From positions 1 to 10,535 of the forward strand of contig JAFGOA010000033.1 in NCBI GenBank assembly GCA_016926735.1: a DNA stretch of 10,535 bases, given 5' to 3'. This DNA comes from Promethearchaeota archaeon (GTDB taxonomy: Archaea; Asgardarchaeota; Lokiarchaeia; Sigyniarchaeales; SOKP01). The notes beneath the pieces are model-generated. The model was given only the letters and a program-made list of their open reading frames with translations. It ran no database searches and was not told the origin of the DNA. Within the stretch, counting starts at the first letter, position 1; the number at the start of each line of letters is the position of its first letter. The translations under genes and the position numbers were made by a program. Below are positions 1 through 10,535 of the stretch, one piece after another.

Positions 1-153
1 AAACGAGGTTTATTTTAATTGATTAAAGAGATTAAAATCAATGCGGACGTAAATCCTGCAATGAATATCCTAAGAAAAGTAGTTCCCACAACCTTCGATG
101 GTAAGGGAATAGAGGCGATGGTGTTATCGCTTGGAATTGTTATAATTTGTTGA
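1..153 (+). pseudogene. tnpB: 3' remnant of an IS200/IS605 (or IS607)-family TnpB RNA-guided nuclease gene, cut by the window edge
   Basis: Manual translation of frame 1 gives KRGLF*LIKEIKINADVNPAMNILRKVVPTTFDGKGIEAMVLSLGIVIIC*. This matches the typical TnpB C-terminus (RGLF...INADVNGAxNILRK...F.DGIEG) containing the RuvC-III Asp. A premature TAA lies at 16-18, and the usual NGA reads NPA. Not in the ORF track. Confidence 0.8.
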
Positions 154-178
154 TATTATTACAATTATATACAATTCT
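82..178 (+). ncRNA. Putative omegaRNA (reRNA) scaffold or transposon right-end hairpins overlapping the tnpB 3' end
   Basis: Three consecutive stems: TTCCC(83-87)/GGGAA(105-109) with inner ACC/GGT; GCGATG(115-120)/TATCGC(125-130); and a long imperfect hairpin GAATTGT(134-140)...ACAATTC(171-177). The position matches where TnpB guide scaffolds are encoded. The exact element end is not determined. Confidence 0.45.
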
Positions 179-217
179 TAATGGAACGTTAAAGGTTATA
201 CTGGTTCTAATAACATG

Positions 218-1306
218 TTAATTTCTTAATCTATCCCATATTTTTTTGATCTTTAAAGCTTTATCAAAATAAATTTCTATTCTATCCACAGTATCATTAA
301 AATCATGCATTTTTTTTGCTTGATCACAAGCATTTTCAATTAATTTCTTTTTATAATTTGAATCTTTTAGAATTTTTTCAATTCCTTGAATAAAATCATT
401 CAATGTTTTAGCTTTATAAGCCGAAAGATCATGTTCTAACCAGTTAAAGACTTCAATATCTCTTGCTACAATTGGTAAATAACAAAGAGATGCTTCAATA
501 AGTGGAAGACATAAATTTTCTTCATCTGAAGTATTCAATAAAATATCTGCTCCAAAATATGGTTCTCTAATATCTTCATAAAATCCTGTAAAAAAAACAT
601 TATTAAGATTCGATGCTTTCTCTACTTCTGGACTATTATTAATTGGACCTACCCAAATAAAATAATAATTTGGTAAGTTTTTTGCAATTTTACAGAAAGT
701 ATCAACTCTTTTTCTTTTCCAAATTAGTCCCACATTTAAAATAATAATTGCATCCTTAGGTATGTTATATTTTTTGTTAATATATTCACGGAACTTATCA
801 CGATAATTTTTTTTATCTGAATATTTTTTCAAGATTATTCCACTACTGACAGACAATATAGGATAAGTCTGTGTTTTTTGTATTCCTTCGATACATGATT
901 TCGCATAGTCACTTGGTGTAATTAACAAATGTGCTTGACTATACAGAAGTCTAACATAAAGTTTTACAAGCTTGTTGATAATTGAGACATTTGGTAATAC
1001 ATTGCCTTTAAGATCTTCATAAGTAGTATGAGCATGTTGTACGATGGCAGCAGTTTTTCTATATTTTTTTTTTAATTTATAGAGTTGAAATAATGTTATA
1101 GGATCAAAACTAGAGGAGCAAATAATATCAACATTACCTTTTTTAACCCATCCTGGTTTTTTTTCTCTTTGTGGAACCCATACATTATGTTGTCTATTTT
1201 TAAGTTCTTTAATAATATCTTCAGTTGTAACTTCTATTCCTCCAACTGTGTCTAGTTTTTTTAAATTTTTATAAATATGAAAGTTTACAATATAAATAAT
1301 ATTCAT
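218..1306 (-). CDS. Glycosyltransferase family 4 (GT-B fold), resembling CpoA-like lipid glycosyltransferases
   Basis: 362 aa with N-terminal GG (TVGGIE), HAHTTYED, ITPS, NVG...RKRVD, FIWVG, FTGF, and an E-x7-E-like motif (EENLCLPLIEA) followed by PIVARD. The substrate is not certain. Confidence 0.88.
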   Translation of the reverse strand: MNIIYIVNFHIYKNLKKLDTVGGIEVTTEDIIKELKNRQHNVWVPQREKKPGWVKKGNVDIICSSSFDPITLFQLYKLKKKYRKTAAIVQHAHTTYEDLKGNVLPNVSIINKLVKLYVRLLYSQAHLLITPSDYAKSCIEGIQKTQTYPILSVSSGIILKKYSDKKNYRDKFREYINKKYNIPKDAIIILNVGLIWKRKRVDTFCKIAKNLPNYYFIWVGPINNSPEVEKASNLNNVFFTGFYEDIREPYFGADILLNTSDEENLCLPLIEASLCYLPIVARDIEVFNWLEHDLSAYKAKTLNDFIQGIEKILKDSNYKKKLIENACDQAKKMHDFNDTVDRIEIYFDKALKIKKIWDRLRN

Positions 1307-1365
1307 AATTGAATTTATGAATTCAATGAAAAAAACTTAACTTCATTAGGAGATTATCAAAAATA
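1307..1365. promoter_or_regulatory. Divergent promoter region with an 8-4-8 inverted repeat and an SD-like AGGAGA before lipS2
   Basis: 59-bp gap between head-to-head start codons. ATTGAATT-tatg-AATTCAAT at 1308-1327; AGGAGA at 1348-1353. Confidence 0.45.
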
Positions 1366-2370
1366 ATGGATGTTAATAAAATAAGAATATCCAGTGGAAG
1401 TGCTATAGCGCTAGGATTAATTATAGGGAGAAAAATACAGACTCTTCCTACAACATGCTATCTAATGACTTATTATTCTGGTAAATGCATGGCTAATTGT
1501 AGTTTTTGTCCTCAAGCTAGATCAAATCAAGGGTCAGTAGATAAGCTTTCGAGAGTTAATTGGCCAATATTCCAATTTAAGGATTTCATTACTAAAATTA
1601 AATATATGAAGCCTTCTCTAAAATTCAAAAGAATTTGTATACAAACAATTAATTATCCAAATAATTTTCAAGATCTTATAGAAATTGTGAAAGAAATTAA
1701 AAAAGAAAGTTCTATCTCAATTTCAACCGCAATACCCCCTATGAATAAAGAAAAATTAAAAGAACTTAAAATAATAGGAGTAGAGAGAATTGGAATAGCT
1801 CTTGATGCAGCTACAGAAGAAACATTTGAAAAGATAAAAGGAAAAGGTGTAAAAAGTCTCTATTGTTGGAAAACTCATTATGAGAGTTTAATTGAAGCAA
1901 CAGAGATCTTTTCAAACAATTCTGTTTCAACCCATATTATTTATGGATTAGGAGATACACAAGAACAAATATTAAAATTAATATATAACCTAAAAAAAGT
2001 AGGAATATTAACTGCTTTATTTGCTTTTATGCCTATTAAAGATACTACATTAGAGAAATTTCAACGGCCAAATCTGTTTGATTTCAGAAAACTTCAGCTT
2101 GCTAGAGAAATTATAATAAACAAAGAACATTCATTAGAAGATATTACTTTTAATTTAAAAGGAGATATTATTAAAATCAATATCAATAGAAAAGATTTAA
2201 TGAATATTATTAATGAAAATGTTGTTTTTAGAACAACAGGATGCCCTGATTGTAATAGACCCTATTATACATCAACACCATCAGGACCTTACTATAATTT
2301 TCCTAGAATTTTGAATAATTTAGAAAAAAACGAAATATATAATCAATTGAAAGAATTAGTTAATTTTTAG
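1366..2370 (+). CDS. lipS2: Radical SAM lipoyl synthase component LipS2 (TK2248-like, biotin synthase-related)
   Basis: CxxxCxxC motif (CMANCSFC), PTTCYLMTY, LSRVNWP, and C-terminal TTGCPDCNRP, which matches the TxGCPxC(N/D)RP signature. Clustered with a lipoate ligase and a LipS1 gene. Confidence 0.88.
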   Translation: MDVNKIRISSGSAIALGLIIGRKIQTLPTTCYLMTYYSGKCMANCSFCPQARSNQGSVDKLSRVNWPIFQFKDFITKIKYMKPSLKFKRICIQTINYPNNFQDLIEIVKEIKKESSISISTAIPPMNKEKLKELKIIGVERIGIALDAATEETFEKIKGKGVKSLYCWKTHYESLIEATEIFSNNSVSTHIIYGLGDTQEQILKLIYNLKKVGILTALFAFMPIKDTTLEKFQRPNLFDFRKLQLAREIIINKEHSLEDITFNLKGDIIKININRKDLMNIINENVVFRTTGCPDCNRPYYTSTPSGPYYNFPRILNNLEKNEIYNQLKELVNF

Positions 2371-2379
2371 TATGTTTAT

Positions 2380-3159
2380 ATGAATGATTGGAGATTTATT
2401 CCACTTGAAACCAAAAATGGTTATTGGAATATGGCTTTAGATGAGGCAATATTAGAATCAGTAATTCAAAAAAGATCTCCATTTACAATAAGATTATATA
2501 AATGGTCCCCTTCAACAATAACAATAGGAAGAAACCAAAGTTTGCACAATGAAGTAAATTTAAAATTTTGTCAACGAGAAAAATTCGATGTTATAAGACG
2601 AATAACTGGTGGTGGTGCTGTTTTTCATGATAATAAGGGAGAAATTACATATTCAATTATCTGTTCATTAGATTTCTTAAAAAAAAGAAAAGCGTTAACT
2701 ATAATTGAACAATATGAGATTATTACAGATTGTATTACAGTTTGTCTTAAGAATTTAGGTCTTAAAACAAACAAAGGAATAATCCATTGTCCAGCTCTCT
2801 TTTTTAACAATAAAAAATTCTCAGGAAACGCTCAATTAAGAAAAAAAGGAATAATTCTGCAACATGGAACAATTTTATTAGATATAAATCCTGAATTAAT
2901 GTATTTTGCCTTAAAACCACCTCAAAATAGTTCTCATAATAGAATGGTTAAATCTGTAAGAACTAAATGCATTGGTATTAAAAATAGTATACCTAATTAT
3001 AAAGAACAATACTTTGTTGATTCTTTAAAACAAAGTTTTATGAATCAATTAGATATTTCTCTTCTAAATGGAACGATTGTTCAACGTGAAAGAGAATATG
3101 CAAAAAAATTAATAGAGGAAAAATATAAAAATAAAAAATGGTTGGAGAAATATGACTAA
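2380..3159 (+). CDS. lplA: Lipoate-protein ligase A catalytic domain / LipM-like octanoyltransferase (BPL/LplA/LipB family)
   Basis: NMALDEA, RRITGGGAVFHD, KFSGNAQ (catalytic Lys) and LQHGT. At 259 aa it has no C-terminal accessory domain. Confidence 0.85.
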   Translation: MNDWRFIPLETKNGYWNMALDEAILESVIQKRSPFTIRLYKWSPSTITIGRNQSLHNEVNLKFCQREKFDVIRRITGGGAVFHDNKGEITYSIICSLDFLKKRKALTIIEQYEIITDCITVCLKNLGLKTNKGIIHCPALFFNNKKFSGNAQLRKKGIILQHGTILLDINPELMYFALKPPQNSSHNRMVKSVRTKCIGIKNSIPNYKEQYFVDSLKQSFMNQLDISLLNGTIVQREREYAKKLIEEKYKNKKWLEKYD

Positions 3160-4204
3160 AATTTCTGAGCTTATCAATAAAATACATAATAGTAATGCTA
3201 ATTGGACAGATTACTCTAAGATTCTTAAATTAGAAAAGAATGAACTATATCCTTTTTTTAATATAGCTCAAAAAATAAAAAATGATAACTTTGGAAATAT
3301 TTTAAAAATATATATTCCGGGTAGAAAATTTCCTTCTATTAGTATTACAGGAAATCAATGTGAGCTTAATTGTGACCATTGTAATAAAAAATTTCTTAAT
3401 GGAATGAAATCAATTATAAGCAATCAAGATTTAAAAAAATATCTTTTAGATCATTATCAAAATGGAGGAATTGGAGCTTTAATTTCTGGTGGAAGTCTTT
3501 TAGATGGCTCAGTTCCATTATTTAATTTTTTAGATACAATTAAAGAAGTAAAAGCAAAAACAAATTTAATTTTTAATATCCATACAGGATTATTGAAGGA
3601 AAAAACCGCCAAGAAATTAGCAGAGGCAAAAGTAGATGTAATTTCATTTGATATTAATGTAGATTCTGAAGTTATTCATAATATTTATCATTTAGATAAG
3701 AATATAAATGATTATAAGGATGCAATTAACTTTTTAAAAGAATATAAACTTAATATTATTCCACACGTATGTTTTGGATTATATTATGGTAAATTACATA
3801 AAGAATTAGAATCATTGAAATTCATTAAAGAAACAATTGGAGCCCCATCTTTAATAGTATTGATCGCATTGATCGCTCCAAAGAATAATAAACTCTTATT
3901 TAACATACCTAATCCATATGAAATAGCAAAAATTATTACTTTAACCAGAATTATATTTCCAAAAACTGAAATATCATTAGGTTGCATGCGTCCAAGAGGG
4001 AGAGTTAGAGGAGAGATTGAAAGATATGCAATTAAAGCAGGGATTACAAGAATAGAGATCCCTCTAAGACAGACATATAATTGGATTTTAAAAAAATATC
4101 CCAAAATAGATATTAAATTCTATTCTGCTTGTTGTTCAATACCAAGAGAATATGAAGATAAAATTGTGGTAGATCAATTGGATCTTAAGAGATATTTGAG
4201 ATAG
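3152..4204 (+). CDS. lipS1: Radical SAM lipoyl synthase component LipS1 (TK2109-like)
   Basis: FPSISITGNQCELNCDHC (CxxxCxxC), LISGG, NIHTG, and the GCMRP and C-terminal CC (SACCS) signatures. Overlaps the ligase gene by 8 nt. Confidence 0.88.
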   Translation: MTKISELINKIHNSNANWTDYSKILKLEKNELYPFFNIAQKIKNDNFGNILKIYIPGRKFPSISITGNQCELNCDHCNKKFLNGMKSIISNQDLKKYLLDHYQNGGIGALISGGSLLDGSVPLFNFLDTIKEVKAKTNLIFNIHTGLLKEKTAKKLAEAKVDVISFDINVDSEVIHNIYHLDKNINDYKDAINFLKEYKLNIIPHVCFGLYYGKLHKELESLKFIKETIGAPSLIVLIALIAPKNNKLLFNIPNPYEIAKIITLTRIIFPKTEISLGCMRPRGRVRGEIERYAIKAGITRIEIPLRQTYNWILKKYPKIDIKFYSACCSIPREYEDKIVVDQLDLKRYLR

Positions 4205-4210
4205 CATAAT

Positions 4211-5560
4211 ATGAAAAGGATTGAGTTAATTGGAATTCAAGGTATTCCACTAATTAAAAGTGGAGACAATATAGCTGATATTATAATAAAAAAAATTGAC
4301 GAGAACAATATTCATCTAAAAAATAATGACATTTTAATTATTGCTCAAACAGTTATTTCCAAAAGTTTAGGATTAATAAAGAATTTAAGTGAAATTAAAC
4401 CAAGTGAAAAAGCAGAGAAAATTTTTAATGAAATTGAAAAAAAAGTACGGGATGCGAATCTTCCTCTAAAAAATCCACAATTAATTCAAGCAATAATTGA
4501 TGAATCAAATGATATTTTAATAAAAGAACATGTTTTGATAACAGAAACTAAACATGGATTTATTTGTGCAAATGCGGGGATTGATACATCTAATATAAAA
4601 GGTGAGGGGAATATATCCTTTTTACCAGATAATTCTGATATTGAAGCTAAAAAAATTAGAAAATTAATTAAACAGAAAATCAAAGTAGATATTGCTGTTA
4701 TTATTTCTGATTCATTTGGAAGGCCTTTCAGAAAAGGTTCAGTAGGGGTTGCAATAGGTTGTGCCGGAATAGAACCATTATTGGATAAAAGAGGATATAA
4801 AGATTTATATGGGAAAGAATTAAAATCAACATTAATAGGTCAAATAGATAATTTAGCTTCTTCTGCTCAACTTATAATGGGAGAATGTGATGAAGGCCTT
4901 CCCATTGTTCTTATCAGAGGATATTCATTCTCATTATCAGAGAATGGATCAATTATATCAATTTTAAGAAAAAAAAAAAATGACCTTTTTTTGAAGAAAG
5001 ATGAATATATAATTGAAAACTTTCTAAAAGGTCGTAGAAGTTATAAGTCTGAATATTCAAATAGAGAAGTCGATCAAAATATTATTAATGCTTCTATAAA
5101 GATCTCTCAATTTGCACCTAAAGCACATAATCGTATATTTGGGAAATATATTATTCTTAAAAAACAGCAAAGAAAAGATCTTATTGATAAAATGAATCAA
5201 AAACTATATGAAGATCTGACTAAAGATAATAGATCTGAAGATTTTATTTCAGAAAAAATTGCAAAAACACGAAATACCTTTTTAAATGCTCCCATATTGA
5301 TTCTTTTATGTTTAAATATCAATAAATTGATTCCATATCCCGATCAAGAGAGAAAGAATAATGAATTTTTGATTGGAGTCCAAAGTATTAGTTCTTCTGC
5401 AATTTATTTTATTTTAGCATTAGAATCAAAAGGTTTAAAATCTTGTTGGTATTCTGCTCCTTTATTTGCATCGAAAATAGTTCAAAGGGTTTTGCGGTTA
5501 TCTAAGAGTTTAAAACCAATGGCATTTTTCACAATTGGGTATCCAACAAACGAAAAATAA
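4211..5560 (+). CDS. cofE: Coenzyme F420-0:L-glutamate ligase fused to a C-terminal FMN-binding nitroreductase-fold domain (FbiB-like architecture)
   Basis: N-terminal ~260 aa carry CofE motifs GIPLIKSGD, ICANAGIDTSN, ISDSFGRPFR, LIMGECDEGLPIVLIRG and DLF. C-terminal ~185 aa carry nitroreductase motifs RRSY, APKAHN, NAPILI, GLKSCWYSAP and IGYP. Confidence 0.9.
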   Translation: MKRIELIGIQGIPLIKSGDNIADIIIKKIDENNIHLKNNDILIIAQTVISKSLGLIKNLSEIKPSEKAEKIFNEIEKKVRDANLPLKNPQLIQAIIDESNDILIKEHVLITETKHGFICANAGIDTSNIKGEGNISFLPDNSDIEAKKIRKLIKQKIKVDIAVIISDSFGRPFRKGSVGVAIGCAGIEPLLDKRGYKDLYGKELKSTLIGQIDNLASSAQLIMGECDEGLPIVLIRGYSFSLSENGSIISILRKKKNDLFLKKDEYIIENFLKGRRSYKSEYSNREVDQNIINASIKISQFAPKAHNRIFGKYIILKKQQRKDLIDKMNQKLYEDLTKDNRSEDFISEKIAKTRNTFLNAPILILLCLNINKLIPYPDQERKNNEFLIGVQSISSSAIYFILALESKGLKSCWYSAPLFASKIVQRVLRLSKSLKPMAFFTIGYPTNEK

Positions 5561-5604
5561 AAAAAGTTATTTAATTTCACAAAACCACTTAAAAGTGAAC
5601 TATA

Positions 5605-6534
5605 TTGAGTGATAGATATTTATTATTGGCTGGAGGAATTGGTGCTGCTAGATTTATTGAGGGGCTTATAAATGTTATAGATCAAGATAAATTGGATATT
5701 ATTGTCAATACTGGTGATGATATTGAATTATTTGGGCTACAAATATGTCCAGATTTAGATATAATTACCTATACTATAGCAAATATTGTAGATAAAAATA
5801 AGGATTGGGGGATTAAAGATGATTCTTTTATTTGTTTGAAAATGTTAAAAAATTATTATGATATTGGATGGTTTAATATAGGAGATAAAGACCTATCAAC
5901 TCATATCTTTAGAACGGATCTTTATAAGAAAGGATTAAGTAAATCAGAGATTACAAAAAGAATTTGCGAGAAATTAGGTGTTACTGCAAATATTATTCCA
6001 ATGAGTAATGAAAAAGTTGAAACCTTTATAAAAACGCCTAAAAAGCTCTTACATTTTGAAGAGTTCTTTGTTAAATACAAATGTAAACCAAAAATTTTAG
6101 ATATTATCTTCCAAGGAATTTCTAAATCAAAACCAAGTGAGGATATCTTAAAAAAAATAAATTTAGCAGGAAAAATAATAATATGTCCATCCAATCCGAT
6201 TGTTTCAATAGGTACAATATTATCTGTTCCTGGAATAAAAAATGCATTAAATAATGTTAAAGAAAAAATTTATGCAATTAGTCCAATAGTAGAAGGAAAA
6301 GCAGTTAAGGGGCCAACCAAAAAATTCTTGGAATTTTTTAACTTAGAATGTTCTTGTTTAAGTGTAGCGAAGCATTATAAATCCTTTTTAGGTAATTTTA
6401 TCATAGATATAAAAGATAAAAATTATAGATCAGAAATTGAAAAATTAGGGATAAAAACATACTGTTATAATACAATAATGGAAAATTTAGAGAAAAAAAA
6501 AGAGTTAGCAAAATTTGTAATTGATTTACTATAA
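5605..6534 (+). CDS. cofD: 2-phospho-L-lactate / phosphoenolpyruvate transferase for F420 biosynthesis (CofD/FbiA)
   Basis: LAGGIGAARF, IVNTGDD, CPDLD, WFNIGDKD, HFEEF, ICPSNPIVSIG and ISPIV. TTG start; adjacent to cofE. Confidence 0.93.
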   Translation: MSDRYLLLAGGIGAARFIEGLINVIDQDKLDIIVNTGDDIELFGLQICPDLDIITYTIANIVDKNKDWGIKDDSFICLKMLKNYYDIGWFNIGDKDLSTHIFRTDLYKKGLSKSEITKRICEKLGVTANIIPMSNEKVETFIKTPKKLLHFEEFFVKYKCKPKILDIIFQGISKSKPSEDILKKINLAGKIIICPSNPIVSIGTILSVPGIKNALNNVKEKIYAISPIVEGKAVKGPTKKFLEFFNLECSCLSVAKHYKSFLGNFIIDIKDKNYRSEIEKLGIKTYCYNTIMENLEKKKELAKFVIDLL

Positions 6535-6546
6535 GATTTATTTTTA

Positions 6547-8043
6547 TTATGTAGATCCAGAGGGGCTAGGTGATATCTCTTCTTCAATTTTAGGTTCTTC
6601 ATTTATCTCTGTTTCTATTTCTTCTTTTTTAACATAATCTCCAACTGAAGCAAGAATTTCTTTTATCTTACCTTCTTGTTTTAACCTAAGCACTAAACCT
6701 CTACTTTTTATAAATGATATAATCTTTGCTAAAACAGGAAAGAATAACATAATTGGCAATAATAGAATGATAATTGCTTCTGGATTAAAATTTGTTTCTA
6801 TAGATTGTACAATAGCATCTGGTAATCTAAAAACATTCACGAGAAACCATTTTGGATGGATAATAATAAAGCTTATTATTATTAAAACACCTAATCTTAA
6901 TAAAGTATTTATTAAAGTAGAGATGACTAAGTTCTTTACTTTAGGGGCAGAAGACTTTGCTGTTAATGTGTTTTCTGCCTCAGGGTCTTCCCTAAATAAT
7001 CTATCAACATAACTTCCTAAACGTCGAGTTTTTGACGCCGCTTGGATTAATTTTTTCTCTTCAGATTCAAGTTTTTTCTTTTCTATCATCTCTCGGATAT
7101 ATGAGAATCTTTTTTCTTTTTTCAATAGAAATTGTTCTATAGATTCTCTCTCTGTGCCTAATTCCTCTTTTTTCTTCTTAGCTTCTTCTTTAATTTTATC
7201 AATATTGGTAGTAACATGTACAGATTCCTTACGTAATAAGTTTAGTTGGGCTTCCAAACGTTCACGTCTTTTAAGAGACGGTTTTGTTACAGTATCTGCA
7301 TAATTTATTTGAAAGGATATTTCAAGATATAAATAACTGATAATTGCAAATAAAATGATTGGAGTACTGAAAAATTCGAAGAAATTATCAATAGGTATAT
7401 TTGAAAACGAATCGCTTAATGGGTCTATTAATTCATTTAAATTAATTATTCCTTTATCTTCAAGAAAATCATTAATTGGATTGAGCAAACCGAATAAATC
7501 AAGCATCTCTTTAAATTTATCTATCATTAGTGGAAATATAATCATTGCAACCAAAAATCCGATTGCTTTCAAATTATATTTTGTATTACTCTGTATAATT
7601 CCTCTAATTAAGTACATTATTGTAAAAATGAAAATCAATTGGAATATAAGTAAATAGATATCATTTGTAAGAGTTAAAATATTTGATAATAATAAATCAG
7701 GAATCTTTTCAAACGAAGGTATTGTTCCATCTGCAAAACTAAACCAATTACCTAATAAATTCCTGAAGAAGAGGTCCATAAAATTAATCATTTCTTGACC
7801 TCCAATTGCACTAAAAAGTCCTCCAATTAAATAAATAAAACCCATAACAACACAATACAATAACAAGAAAATTATTAGACTGAGTAAATCTTTTAAAGCA
7901 TAAACAAAATCAATTACTACCCAATTATCACCAACCATTAAAACCTCCTCAAAATTAAATAAAGAGAAAAAAATAGTTAAAATCCATACAAACAATAATG
8001 CATTTAAAACCCTTAAAAGTGTTAGATATATTTTTCTTTCCAT
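6547..8043 (-). CDS. Uncharacterised polytopic membrane protein with a central charged coiled-coil-like region
   Basis: 498 aa. About five hydrophobic segments in the N-terminal ~245 aa, a K/E/R-rich helical stretch (~aa 255-370), two more hydrophobic segments and an acidic tail. Starts 15 bp after the DUF58 stop, with GAGGGA upstream. Confidence 0.8.
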   Translation of the reverse strand: MERKIYLTLLRVLNALLFVWILTIFFSLFNFEEVLMVGDNWVVIDFVYALKDLLSLIIFLLLYCVVMGFIYLIGGLFSAIGGQEMINFMDLFFRNLLGNWFSFADGTIPSFEKIPDLLLSNILTLTNDIYLLIFQLIFIFTIMYLIRGIIQSNTKYNLKAIGFLVAMIIFPLMIDKFKEMLDLFGLLNPINDFLEDKGIINLNELIDPLSDSFSNIPIDNFFEFFSTPIILFAIISYLYLEISFQINYADTVTKPSLKRRERLEAQLNLLRKESVHVTTNIDKIKEEAKKKKEELGTERESIEQFLLKKEKRFSYIREMIEKKKLESEEKKLIQAASKTRRLGSYVDRLFREDPEAENTLTAKSSAPKVKNLVISTLINTLLRLGVLIIISFIIIHPKWFLVNVFRLPDAIVQSIETNFNPEAIIILLLPIMLFFPVLAKIISFIKSRGLVLRLKQEGKIKEILASVGDYVKKEEIETEINEEPKIEEEISPSPSGST

Positions 8044-8058
8044 TTTTATCCCTCTTTT

Positions 8059-9387
8059 TTAAAATGCTTTTCCCTTCTTTTTTGCTTCTAAGTAATTACT
8101 TAATACTTGGTTCATCATATCATCAGGTCCGACTGTTACAATATTTATACCTAAATTTCGAGCTTGTTGTTTTATTTCAATGATATGTTCCATCATCTCT
8201 TCAGCTATTGCTTCTGCTAAAGCTTTATCTGTTGATGACAGATCTATCTCGTGTATTTCGAACCATGGAGAAAATGGATTGATTACCATAACTGTATGTC
8301 CAAAAGGTATAAGTTTTTTTAGCCCATCTTTAATTTCCTTGACACTTGCTTCCAAATCAGAAATAATAAATATCAGACTCCTTTTTTGATATCTTTTTAT
8401 AAAATAATCCATCGCTTCAAAAATTCTGCACTTACCCTCAGGTTTTACTCTAGCTACAAAATCCAGTATTTGATAGAAATATTCTTCACCACTACCAGGT
8501 TTTAAAAAGTTAAAATTTTTTTTATCAGAAAAAGTAAAAACTCCTACATTATCTCTTCTTGTTAATGAAATTTTAGCTAATAACATACAAGCCCTGATAG
8601 CATATTCAAATTTAGTGTTGTCTATTGCACCTCCAGCCATGGAGTTTGAAGAATCTACTAAAATCATCATGCTAATATCTCTTTCAGTCTCAAATTCTCT
8701 AACTATTAATTTTTGAGTTCTAACACTTGCTTTCCAATCAATTAATCTGAATTGATCTCCAAAAACATATTTTCTCATACCATAAAATTCTGCCCCTAAG
8801 CCTTTTTGTTTTGATCTCTGAATACCATAGTTCAAATTTAATGATCTTTTTGATCCTAAAATCTCAATTCTTTTTATATCTTCATATGGAGGGTAAATTA
8901 ATACTTTAGTTACACTATTTGGTATTATTCTTTCAGCAGAGTTAAATCCAAGGCGATCTTTCACAGTCACAGAAAGGGGTCCAATGGGATATTCTCCTCT
9001 TACTTTTGGTTCTAATACATAAGAAAATTTAATCATTTCTTTTGGACCTATTCGAGTACTTATAAAATTTTCACCTAGAATCAATCTAAAAAGTTCTATA
9101 TTGATGTAATCTCTAATTTCTATAAAATCAAAACTATTTTTTCCAGTGTTTTCTACAATTACTTTTATATGTACAAAATCATCTTTAAAGATCTTTTCTT
9201 TTTCTAATTCTCTATGTACTCTCAGTTCTTCCACATTCATTTGATAATAAAATAATGGGAGACTAATAACAGAGCTAAACAACAGAATTATCCCAAAATA
9301 GATTAAAAAATAATTTACAAATGAAAATCCTGCTCCCAAAAAGAATACACTAAAAAGAACTAGTGTTCTTCCTTTTCCACCTAGCAT
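8059..9387 (-). CDS. DUF58 family protein with N-terminal TM segments, a beta-rich domain and a vWA-like domain (MoxR partner)
   Basis: RGEYPIGP...DRLG, the DUF58 motif GAEFYGMRKYVFGDQFRLIDWKAS, VREFETE, and a MIDAS-like DSSNS. Lies directly downstream of moxR. Confidence 0.9.
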   Translation of the reverse strand: MLGGKGRTLVLFSVFFLGAGFSFVNYFLIYFGIILLFSSVISLPLFYYQMNVEELRVHRELEKEKIFKDDFVHIKVIVENTGKNSFDFIEIRDYINIELFRLILGENFISTRIGPKEMIKFSYVLEPKVRGEYPIGPLSVTVKDRLGFNSAERIIPNSVTKVLIYPPYEDIKRIEILGSKRSLNLNYGIQRSKQKGLGAEFYGMRKYVFGDQFRLIDWKASVRTQKLIVREFETERDISMMILVDSSNSMAGGAIDNTKFEYAIRACMLLAKISLTRRDNVGVFTFSDKKNFNFLKPGSGEEYFYQILDFVARVKPEGKCRIFEAMDYFIKRYQKRSLIFIISDLEASVKEIKDGLKKLIPFGHTVMVINPFSPWFEIHEIDLSSTDKALAEAIAEEMMEHIIEIKQQARNLGINIVTVGPDDMMNQVLSNYLEAKKKGKAF

Positions 9388-9397
9388 TTTTTCTTAT

Positions 9398-9405
9398 CTC
9401 CCACC
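9398..9405 (-). promoter_or_regulatory. Shine-Dalgarno-like GGTGGGAG upstream of the DUF58 start
   Basis: The minus strand reads GGTGGGAG-ATAAGAAAAA-ATG in an otherwise A-rich spacer. Confidence 0.4.
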
Positions 9406-9454
9406 TTTTATTATCATCCTTTTTTTTTTTATTTTTTCCAGATTTTAAAAAAAA

Positions 9455-10468
9455 TTATATAGGAACTGGAATTTCCTCCATTATATGTTTAATTACTGCC
9501 CGAACGTCAAGTCCTTCTAATTCTGCTTCTGGTTTCAATATAATACGATGATTTAGCGCTGGAACTGTTAAAGCTCTTACATCATCAGGAGTTACATATG
9601 ATCTTCCAAGTATTGCTGCTCTCGCTTTTGAACATTTCATTAGTACTAAACTTGCTCTAGGTCCACATCCTAGTCCGATTTGAGGATGATTTCGTGTTTT
9701 TAAAATAATATCTCTTATATATTTTAAAATTCTATCATCTATATACACTTGATTTACTAAATTTTGAGCAGCTAGTAATTCAGGTCCTGTTGTGATTCTT
9801 TGTATCGAAGGATTATCACCAGATAATTGTCTTCTCATTATTTCAACTTCTTCTTCCTTTTCTGGATAATCTAACCATAGTTTAAAAAGAAATCTATCTA
9901 CTTGTGCTTCTGGTAATGGATATGTACCTTCCATTTCAACAGGATTTTCTGTCGCTATAACCATAAATGGTTTTTCTAATTCTAATGTTTGACCTTCAAT
10001 TGTAATTTGTCGTTCTGCCATTGCCTCGAGTAATGCAGCTTGAGTTTTAGGAGCACTTCTATTTATTTCATCTGCGAGTACAATATTAGCAAATAAAGGT
10101 CCTTTTTGAAGAATAAAAGTACCCTCTTCTTGTGAAAAAATTTTCGTCCCAGTTATATCTGCTGGGAGAAGATCTGGTGTAAATTGGACACGTCTGAAAG
10201 ATACTCCTAATGTATTTGCAAAGGTTTTTGCCATAACTGTCTTTCCAAGTCCTGGAACGCCTTTTTACCAATAATTCTATTTGAATTATATTTCTAGTAG
10301 GACGTGTCCATTTACGAGGAGTGAGACAAATAATTGTTGAAGTATTTCACCGCATCCCACTATAACCCTACTAACCTCGGAAAGAACTTCTTGTGCAATT
10401 TCTCTTATAGGTGCTACATCTAAGGTTTCTTGATTTTCAGGATTTATTTTTACCTTAGTTGGTGTCAT
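9455..10468 (-). CDS. moxR: MoxR family AAA+ ATPase in two exons, join(10468..10294, 10263..9455), 327 aa after splicing
   Basis: The track ORFs 10286..10468 and 9455..10234 are in the same frame. Removing 30 nt gives [14 protein letters not shown] (Walker A), followed by [15 protein letters not shown], Walker [37 protein letters not shown] and GPRA. Exon lengths are 175 + 809 = 984 nt. Confidence 0.9.
10264..10293 (-). other. Putative 30-nt bulge-helix-bulge (archaeal tRNA-type) intron in the moxR mRNA
   Basis: Intron sequence AAATATAATTCAAATAGAATTATTGGTAAA. Central 4-bp helix UACU(10299-10296)/GGUA(10269-10266), with bulges AG^A (10295-10293) and AA^A (10265-10263). There is an inner intron hairpin and an outer exon-exon stem. 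Cutting at ^ restores the GAA-GGC codons. Confidence 0.8.
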
Positions 10469-10535
10469 TTTTTTTTTTATACCTTCCTTTTTTTTTTATT
10501 TTTTTTTAATTATTCAATAATGAATAAACATGATA

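Follow-up and report, generated by a model that had tools for sequence, protein, structure and literature searches.

The question raised by the DNA stretch under study, a window of 10,535 nucleotides (nt) from a Promethearchaeota genome (assembly GCA_016926735.1, contig JAFGOA010000033.1, positions 1 to 10,535), is how a MoxR-type AAA+ ATPase gene (moxR) can yield its protein when its Walker A motif is interrupted by 30 nt that contain stop codons. The window is contig C235 of the source genome, G000, and is referred to as such below; the other G numbers denote the genomes of relatives, and L numbers denote fetched loci. The G000 assembly is a metagenome assembly of 3.88 Mb in 238 contigs, with a marker-based completeness of 99.3% and a G+C content of 26%. 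The 30 nt at window positions 10264-10293 of the minus strand are very probably a bulge-helix-bulge (BHB) intron in moxR, with the splicing endonuclease EndA predicted to cut in both bulges and the exons to be ligated. This reading is drawn from the RNA structure, its conservation and covariation, the selection to which the exons are subject, the occurrence of EndA, and sister introns that the same genome has in other genes; the cleavage, the ligation and the identity of the enzymes are what we infer from these sequence data.

The moxR gene runs on the minus strand from its start at 10468 to its end at 9455, and the insert lies in frame inside the Walker A motif. The insert carries three stop codons on that strand (TAA at 10286-10288, TAG at 10277-10279, and TAA at 10265-10267), and the open reading frame (ORF) list gives the gene as two pieces: (i) 10286..10468, of 60 amino acids and ending GHVLLEI before the stop; and (ii) 9455..10234, of 259 amino acids counted from its first ATG, which comes after the Walker A motif. 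Across the junctions the minus strand reads CAC GTC CTA CTA G, then AAATATAATTCAAATAGAATTATTGGTAAA, then AA GGC GTT CCA GGA CTT GGA AAG ACA, and excision of exactly 10264-10293 gives CTA CTA GAA GGC GTT and recreates GVPGLGKT within a 327-codon gene. The predicted exon 1 (10294..10468, minus strand, 175 nt) is composed of the ATG at 10468, 58 codons in all and the G of a split Glu codon, ending GHVLL-E; the predicted exon 2 (9455..10263, minus strand, 809 nt with its stop codon) opens with AA GGC GTT, and together the two make up 984 nt, or 327 codons plus stop. The downstream piece was found to match the Pfam families AAA_3 (positions 15-131 of 131, E 9e-56) and AAA_lid_2 (E 9e-24), while the upstream piece gave no Pfam match. 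A GGAAGG purine run precedes the moxR ATG, and the orthologues align through exon 1.

The RNA of this region can be folded into the motif that EndA is known for, and all of its parts lie on the minus strand. The outer, exon-exon helix is formed by 10301..10310 (UGGA, a bulged C, and ACGUC) and by 10253..10262 (an A, then GGCGU and UCCA), with the C at 10300 and that A forming a C-A mismatch. The central 4-bp helix pairs UACU of the exon (10296..10299) with GGUA of the intron (10266..10269), and is flanked by the 5′ bulge A-G^A (10293..10295, predicted cut between 10294 and 10293) and the 3′ bulge A-A^A (10263..10265, predicted cut between 10264 and 10263), where ^ denotes the cut. Within the insert, AAUAUAAUUC and GAAUUAUU form a hairpin (10270..10292) around the loop AAAUA. 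In G000 and G003 the central helix is paired at 4/4 positions with one G-U, with AG^A and AA^A as its bulges; in the window, the hairpin is entered through four inner pairs next to the 5′ bulge, and in the outer helix the C-A mismatch is followed by five pairs (5 of the first 6 positions). A 65-nt stretch folds at -14.4 kcal/mol (z = -3.13), with 1 of 200 shuffles as good; for a 91-nt stretch the z-score was -2.35 and 3 of 200 shuffles were as good. A strict BHB was defined as a central helix of 4/4 pairs plus an inner helix of at least three pairs, and all combinations of cuts lying no more than 9 nt from the junction, 361 cut pairs, were scored. For site 1 (this insertion point) in G000 and G003, three cut pairs restore the protein, two fit the strict BHB, and exactly one does both. 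Across the whole genome the strict pattern occurs 1,561,361 times over 2 x 3,880,929 positions x 107 lengths, a background of ~1.9e-3 per position and length. A preliminary description made from the window alone had reported the 30-nt interruption of the MoxR Walker A motif, listed the pairings of the central helix, bulges, inner stem and outer stem, and held that the EndA cut rule independently predicts a junction restoring both frame and motif; the insert and every listed pairing are present, and the one cut pair among 361 that passes both tests bears the last point out. In the mechanism we propose, moxR would be transcribed with the insert, and the pre-mRNA would fold such that the last bases of exon 1, UACU, pair with GGUA at the 3′ end of the intron and each splice site is placed in a 3-nt bulge. 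An (alpha-beta)2 EndA would cut after the second base of each bulge, and an RtcB-type ligase would join ...CUACUAG to AAGGCGUU..., giving a 327-residue MoxR ATPase and releasing the intron.

Alignment of moxR orthologues, which the preliminary description had put forward as a check, revealed both presence and absence of the insert as well as covarying helices. In a first set of 30 orthologous loci, 25 were uninterrupted and read GH[VI]LLEGVPGL[GA]KT, and five were interrupted at the same codon: by 30 nt in G000 and G003 (identical), 30 nt in G002 (four changes), 31 nt in G001, and 32 nt in G012, which belongs to another genus. A wider survey of 49 loci, in which some genomes appear twice, found nine loci from six genomes to be interrupted and 40 uninterrupted. 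Since G000 is a metagenome assembly of many contigs, an assembly artefact might be suspected, or an insert present in only part of the DNA population; the occurrence of the insert in five separately assembled genomes, in diverged sequence and in three lengths, leaves this a negligible chance. The exons of G001 and G012 are in different frames, and the frame is restored only by exact removal of the insert, such that neither stop-codon read-through nor a tolerated insertion explains the gene.

Standard gene callers would give two ORFs at this locus, as for a pseudogene in decay or a gene that permanently encodes two separate polypeptides, and the preliminary description had named an elevated ratio of nonsynonymous to synonymous substitution (dN/dS) as the sign of such decay. 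No elevation was seen: dN/dS was 0.022-0.054 among carriers compared with 0.026-0.060 among intact pairs (G000 and G001 differ by 165 nt and 16 amino acids). After conceptual excision, the six interrupted genes and 25 intact ones align gap-free over 312 codons with no further stops, and no other defect was detected in these codons. The eight GVPGLGKT codons, which lie between the insert and the first ATG and are not preceded by any ATG, GTG or TTG start, show only synonymous differences among the five carriers, and the insert persists across the genus at synonymous divergence (dS) of up to 1.3-1.5. On these data decay or a permanent split is highly improbable; the exons of the interrupted moxR, as judged from the alignments, are under purifying selection equal to that on the intact orthologues. 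The gene tree united the source genus, four genomes that all carry the site-1 intron, in a single clade (support 100/98); G012 fell outside this clade in an unresolved region, and G018, the sister of G007, was without an intron. This distribution indicates that the intron is old within the genus and that its history includes further gains or losses.

Further inserts were detected at three other positions of moxR: (i) site 2, 30 nt in G012 between FTP and DLLP; (ii) site 3, 29 nt in G007 between AMAE and KQ; and (iii) site 4, 31 nt in G007 between ELE and GLD. The motifs at site 2 (CACC-[AG^U]-9 bp-GGUG-[AG^A]) and site 3 (GCAG-[AA^U]-6 bp-CUGU-[AU^A]) are both of textbook form. At site 4, a junction that parts GAG from GGT was rejected, as it folds poorly (-4.7 vs -17.6 kcal/mol), and was replaced by a synonymous junction 2 nt upstream, which gives AAUU-[AG^A]-5 bp-GAUU-[AA^A]. 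All four sites (site 1 in G000/G003) have exactly one protein-restoring excision that is a strict BHB, compared with two to three strict matches among the 361 local cut pairs. The site-4 intron of G007 (L034:603-660) is a sequence relative of the site-1 intron (window 10253-10309): the two have in common the bulges AG^A and AA^A, the exon context UAG^...^AAGG and a junction coding for L-E-G. Such likeness is suggestive, at the sequence level, of the transfer of an intron copy to a similar-looking site. When four distinct site-1 versions were aligned with the site-4 copy, 90% of the cells were paired compared with 27-50% when the partners were slid; in this five-sequence set seven pairs had changes in both partners and none of the 500 shuffles scored as high, a result that is modest alone. 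Compensatory changes were observed in the inner hairpin of G012 and of the G007 site-4 copy.

The covariation also bears on translational bypassing, in which the ribosome would hop over the 30-32 nt without any cut in the RNA. Phage T4 gene 60 is an example of such a bypass, with matched take-off and landing codons, a stop codon and a hairpin, and the moxR insert resembles it in having a stop codon two codons past the junction and a stable hairpin in the gap. The take-off and landing codons of moxR are unmatched, with GAA or CUA before the gap and AAA before GGC after it. Moreover, the helix that exon 1 forms with the 3′ end of the insert, flanked by 3-nt bulges at the junctions, is not needed for bypassing, yet it is conserved and covarying, and an exon-insert helix of this kind recurs at the four moxR sites and in seven other genes. 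Bypassing is thus very unlikely, and these are features that BHB splicing would account for.

The other genes are those in which at least eight more BHB-flanked introns were identified in G000, seven genes in all, each intron with a 4/4 central helix at its protein-restoring junction. These introns were found by eye among scan candidates and by homology rather than by statistics, a procedure that favours junctions inside recognised motifs, and the gene family names have Pfam backing where stated. They comprise 30 nt in an iorB-like gene with a POR domain (C4:54826-54855), 31 nt inside the GHIDHG-K-TT motif of a paralogue of elongation factor 2 (EF-2; C188:20431-20461), 31 nt in DnaG (C192:7776-7806), 30 and 32 nt in a DeoC-family aldolase gene with two introns (C50:42770-42799 and 42170-42201), 30 nt in a ThiF-like gene (C108:9843-9872), 30 nt in a thymidine/AMP-phosphorylase-like (nucleoside phosphorylase) gene (C50:76347-76376), and 30 nt in NadE (C143:3050-3079). 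For ThiF-like, a first candidate excision of 36 nt was replaced, as the 30-nt excision fits both the protein and the BHB. Pfam searches with the separate halves revealed individual domains divided by the insert: the POR match opens at profile position 29 of 173 in the iorB-like half and the ThiF match at 32 of 238, the DeoC match runs to 220 of 229, and the EF-2 paralogue halves match GTP_EFTU at 1-15 upstream (weak, E 0.03) and 17-187 downstream.

Among orthologues of these genes, carriers and continuous copies were found side by side: 10 carriers and 13 continuous for the iorB-like gene, four and 25 for the EF-2 paralogue (plus one not classifiable), 11 and 14 for the phosphorylase (the junction of G009 was not placed by the script), 11 and 13 for DnaG, and four and 18 for ThiF-like (plus one not classifiable). 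Checking went less far for the aldolase and NadE: relatives of the aldolase were compared by open-frame lengths rather than at the motif level, and for NadE there were four continuous relatives among the matches listed. At the DnaG site (between IFGQ and TEGL), inserts of 37-40 nt occur in L231, L232, L234, L236 and L237 (G013, G009, G011, G004 and G006, respectively); the script placed no convincing BHB register in these five long inserts, which have a TTCGGCT-like core in common. Covariation was stronger in the iorB-like and phosphorylase introns than in the moxR set, with 95.1% of cells paired vs 23-53% when slid and six double-change pairs in the former, and 98.7% vs 26-43% and eight double-change pairs in the latter. 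In the iorB-like, phosphorylase and EF-2 paralogue genes, the exon strand of the central helix includes a synonymous third-codon position that covaries with the intron base it pairs with, as exemplified by AGU/AGC in the iorB-like exon and CAC/CAU in the EF-2 paralogue exon; such exon-intron pairing at synonymous sites is, in terms of sequence, exactly what a BHB substrate requires. The proposal of the preliminary description that moxR is a spliced protein-coding gene is therefore supported by comparison, through the same-codon inserts, the selection, the covariation and the presence of EndA, and the hidden class of mRNA introns that it had anticipated gains these additional members.

Side observations were made on two of these genes. 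In the aldolase gene of G002, G015 and G005 (L251, L254 and L260), in-frame stops occur off the two G000 intron positions (one TGA, one TAG and one TAA in L251; two TAA in L254; one TAA in L260), and these probably mark further intron positions in the aldolase gene. The genome has two EF-2 paralogues (G000:C138:6030-6965 and L149), which are 44% identical; only one has the intron, located in the G1/P-loop motif, as in moxR.

The splicing machinery was examined in G000 and its relatives. Two EndA paralogues of G000, on C33 and C100, scored over the Pfam tRNA_int_endo cut-off (100.8 and 66.3 bits, respectively), which fits the (alpha-beta)2 enzyme with an L1 loop, linked to broad specificity, that passages of Kaneta 2018 (PMC5829648) describe for Asgard archaea. 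ARAGORN predicted introns in 19 of the 52 G000 tRNA genes, and BHB splicing thus appears to be heavily used in this genome. The same program called a tRNA-Pyl with a 245-nt intron (G000:C62:359-696) and a tRNA-Lys with a 736-nt intron (C101:10180-11010), which may be false calls or tRNA genes with long introns. Three metatranscriptomes of the same study contained next to none of the sampled words and yielded 0 contigs placed at the moxR locus, and count neither for nor against splicing.

Several findings weigh against the reading of the moxR insert and its sisters as BHB introns. (i) The exact 3-4-3 conformer of G000 is at -12.6 kcal/mol, 2.5 higher than the minimum-energy fold (-15.1 kcal/mol), which slides by one pair. 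(ii) G002, G001 and G012 have a U-U at the outermost pair of the central helix (3/4 paired), a relaxed form; the preliminary description had called the motif slightly relaxed on the basis of one C-A mismatch, and while that mismatch is present, the relaxation extends more widely, to the central helix of three of the five site-1 versions. (iii) In G002 a competing register, with the central helix ACUA/UGGU, forms the neater motif; this register was rejected, as its cuts remove 28 nt and leave the frame broken. (iv) RtcB was not found in the G000 assembly with either the Pfam model or tblastn searches using the proteins of three relatives. RtcB is present in all three congeners, each of which carries the site-1 intron, and in 11 of the 13 genomes searched, and we tentatively take its absence from G000 as an assembly gap, an odd one for a genome that is rated 99.3% complete and would rely on BHB splicing. 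(v) Four scans of G000 looked for strict BHB patterns in which excision at the canonical cuts would join two broken frames, and gave no excess of candidates in the canonical register over controls with cut sites shifted by 1-2 nt (5726 vs 5646-5964; 17 vs 17-18 at the strictest filter; 70 vs 76-92; and 111 vs 100-110). This lack of excess is explained by a chance background from neighbouring genes that is too high, and it indicates that such introns number tens at most and not hundreds. The missing RtcB, together with the departure of several site-1 versions from the strict motif, might instead point to excision of the RNA by machinery other than EndA and RtcB, either another nuclease and ligase pair or a self-cleaving fold, with the likeness to a BHB being secondary. 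At all positions tested the EndA cut rule suffices by itself to predict the correct junction, EndA is present in G000, RtcB is present in all the congeners that share the intron, and 30 nt is, to our knowledge, too small for any known class of self-splicing intron; we accordingly give this alternative a slim chance and retain removal by EndA, with an RtcB-type ligase, as the probable route.

Other candidates from the genome scans were set aside. A 20/20-nt match to the 3′ half of the moxR intron (C69:34649-34668, E 1.6e-4) was rejected, being antisense within an intact ORF of 595 codons. Gene-to-gene junctions with a ribosome binding site and a start codon inside the presumed intron were judged by eye to be false positives; we take these to be carA/carB, rpl1/rpl10 and others. 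An in-frame TGA at L125:848-850 (G000:C231:22347-22349), in the context FPTDDCSI-stop-ILGPKMLEANRHKNI, lies in what we presume to be an HdrA-like gene at a position expected to be cysteine. It was not counted as an intron and is probably a selenocysteine codon.

The BHB intron in the cbf5 pre-mRNA of Crenarchaeota is reportedly the subject of Watanabe 2002 and Yoshinari 2006. Confirmed splicing of archaeal coding sequence is confined to this one gene according to passages of two papers: Schwarz 2020 (PMC7714728), in which the cbf5 mRNA intron is the only one reported before and one in a 5′ untranslated region (UTR) is added, and Yokobori 2009 (PMC2738675), in which pre-mRNA splicing is confirmed for cbf5 alone and others are only predicted. 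Where mRNA introns are concerned, passages of a 2025 paper on EndA structure (PMC12397907) cite the cbf5 papers only, and the passages at hand from a 2026 review of non-canonical splicing (PMC13149111) list tRNA and IRE1 splicing only. A preprint on Asgard tRNA introns (10.64898/2026.10.13.758758) makes no mention of mRNA in the passages matched. The full-text literature searched yielded no description of BHB introns in mRNAs of Asgard or Loki archaea, with subscription journals and supplements lying outside that search. Like crenarchaeal cbf5 as portrayed in passages of PMC2738675, the putative moxR intron is a BHB-bounded coding-sequence intron of a lineage with hetero-oligomeric EndA, gained and lost among relatives. 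Unlike cbf5, the gene is moxR and the lineage Promethearchaeota, the splicing is predicted rather than demonstrated by experiment, and there are four intron positions in moxR across relatives in addition to the introns of seven other G000 genes. The HVO_1309 mRNA of Haloferax volcanii, in the passages on it in PMC7714728, is similar in that an mRNA instead of a tRNA or rRNA is the EndA substrate (putatively so for moxR), but its intron is located in the 5′ UTR and leaves the reading frame intact, whereas the MoxR protein requires removal. With the multi-intron tRNA genes of Asgard archaea, as outlined in the matched passages of that preprint, the moxR-type introns share the lineage, the presumed enzymes, the short BHB form and repeated gains, and differ in that synonymous sites covary with the intron in the protein genes. 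The eukaryotic splicing of HAC1/XBP1 by IRE1 and RtcB, in the passages of PMC13149111 that treat it, is likewise a protein-only, spliceosome-independent removal of a short mRNA intron with a change of frame and joining by a tRNA ligase; there, the endonuclease is IRE1, which is unrelated to EndA, the recognition structure is different, and the reaction is a regulated stress switch.

The sequence comparisons give good support to the reading of the moxR insert as an intron of the cbf5 kind, the importance of which lies mainly in its being one of a family-wide group of Asgard mRNA mini-introns. With confidence a little above even, we further favour a Loki-type family in which uniform BHB mini-introns of ~30 nt colonise many protein genes, including core ones such as those for the EF-2 paralogue, DnaG primase and NAD synthetase. 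In light of the likeness of site 4 to site 1, the mini-introns may spread to new sites. The Asgard host that the preliminary description had suggested holds, the relatives being Promethearchaeota, and G000 has at least nine candidate introns in eight genes with close relatives that include both carriers and non-carriers. If true, the tRNA-splicing enzymes would be required for ordinary protein production, and splicing of mRNAs by protein enzymes would be routine in the closest prokaryotic relatives of eukaryotes; enzyme-based splicing of mRNA can here be put to the test in the closest lineage to eukaryotes, with presence/absence pairs at hand. Gene callers would list the interrupted genes as broken or split, which would bias gene inventories and counts of pseudogenes in Asgard archaea, and as the exon half of the splicing motif consists of codons, synonymous sites would be tied to RNA structure.

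The genes adjacent to moxR were also analysed. The gene at 8059..9387 on the minus strand, directly downstream of moxR, encodes a DUF58/VWA protein (Pfam DUF58 and VWA_2). DUF58/VWA proteins are the usual partners of MoxR ATPases, and this arrangement indicates a working operon. The MoxR assignment hence draws on AAA_3, AAA_lid_2, a Walker A motif that is intact after excision, and the DUF58/VWA neighbour. An ORF of 498 codons (window 6547-8043, minus strand) directly follows the moxR-DUF58 pair and may be a third member of the operon; it matched no Pfam family. A tRNA search of the window found none. On the plus strand, window 1366-6534 was found by Pfam to contain a gene cluster made up of a lipoate-protein-ligase-like gene, two genes for radical SAM proteins, an F420 gamma-glutamyl ligase fused to a nitroreductase domain, and CofD.

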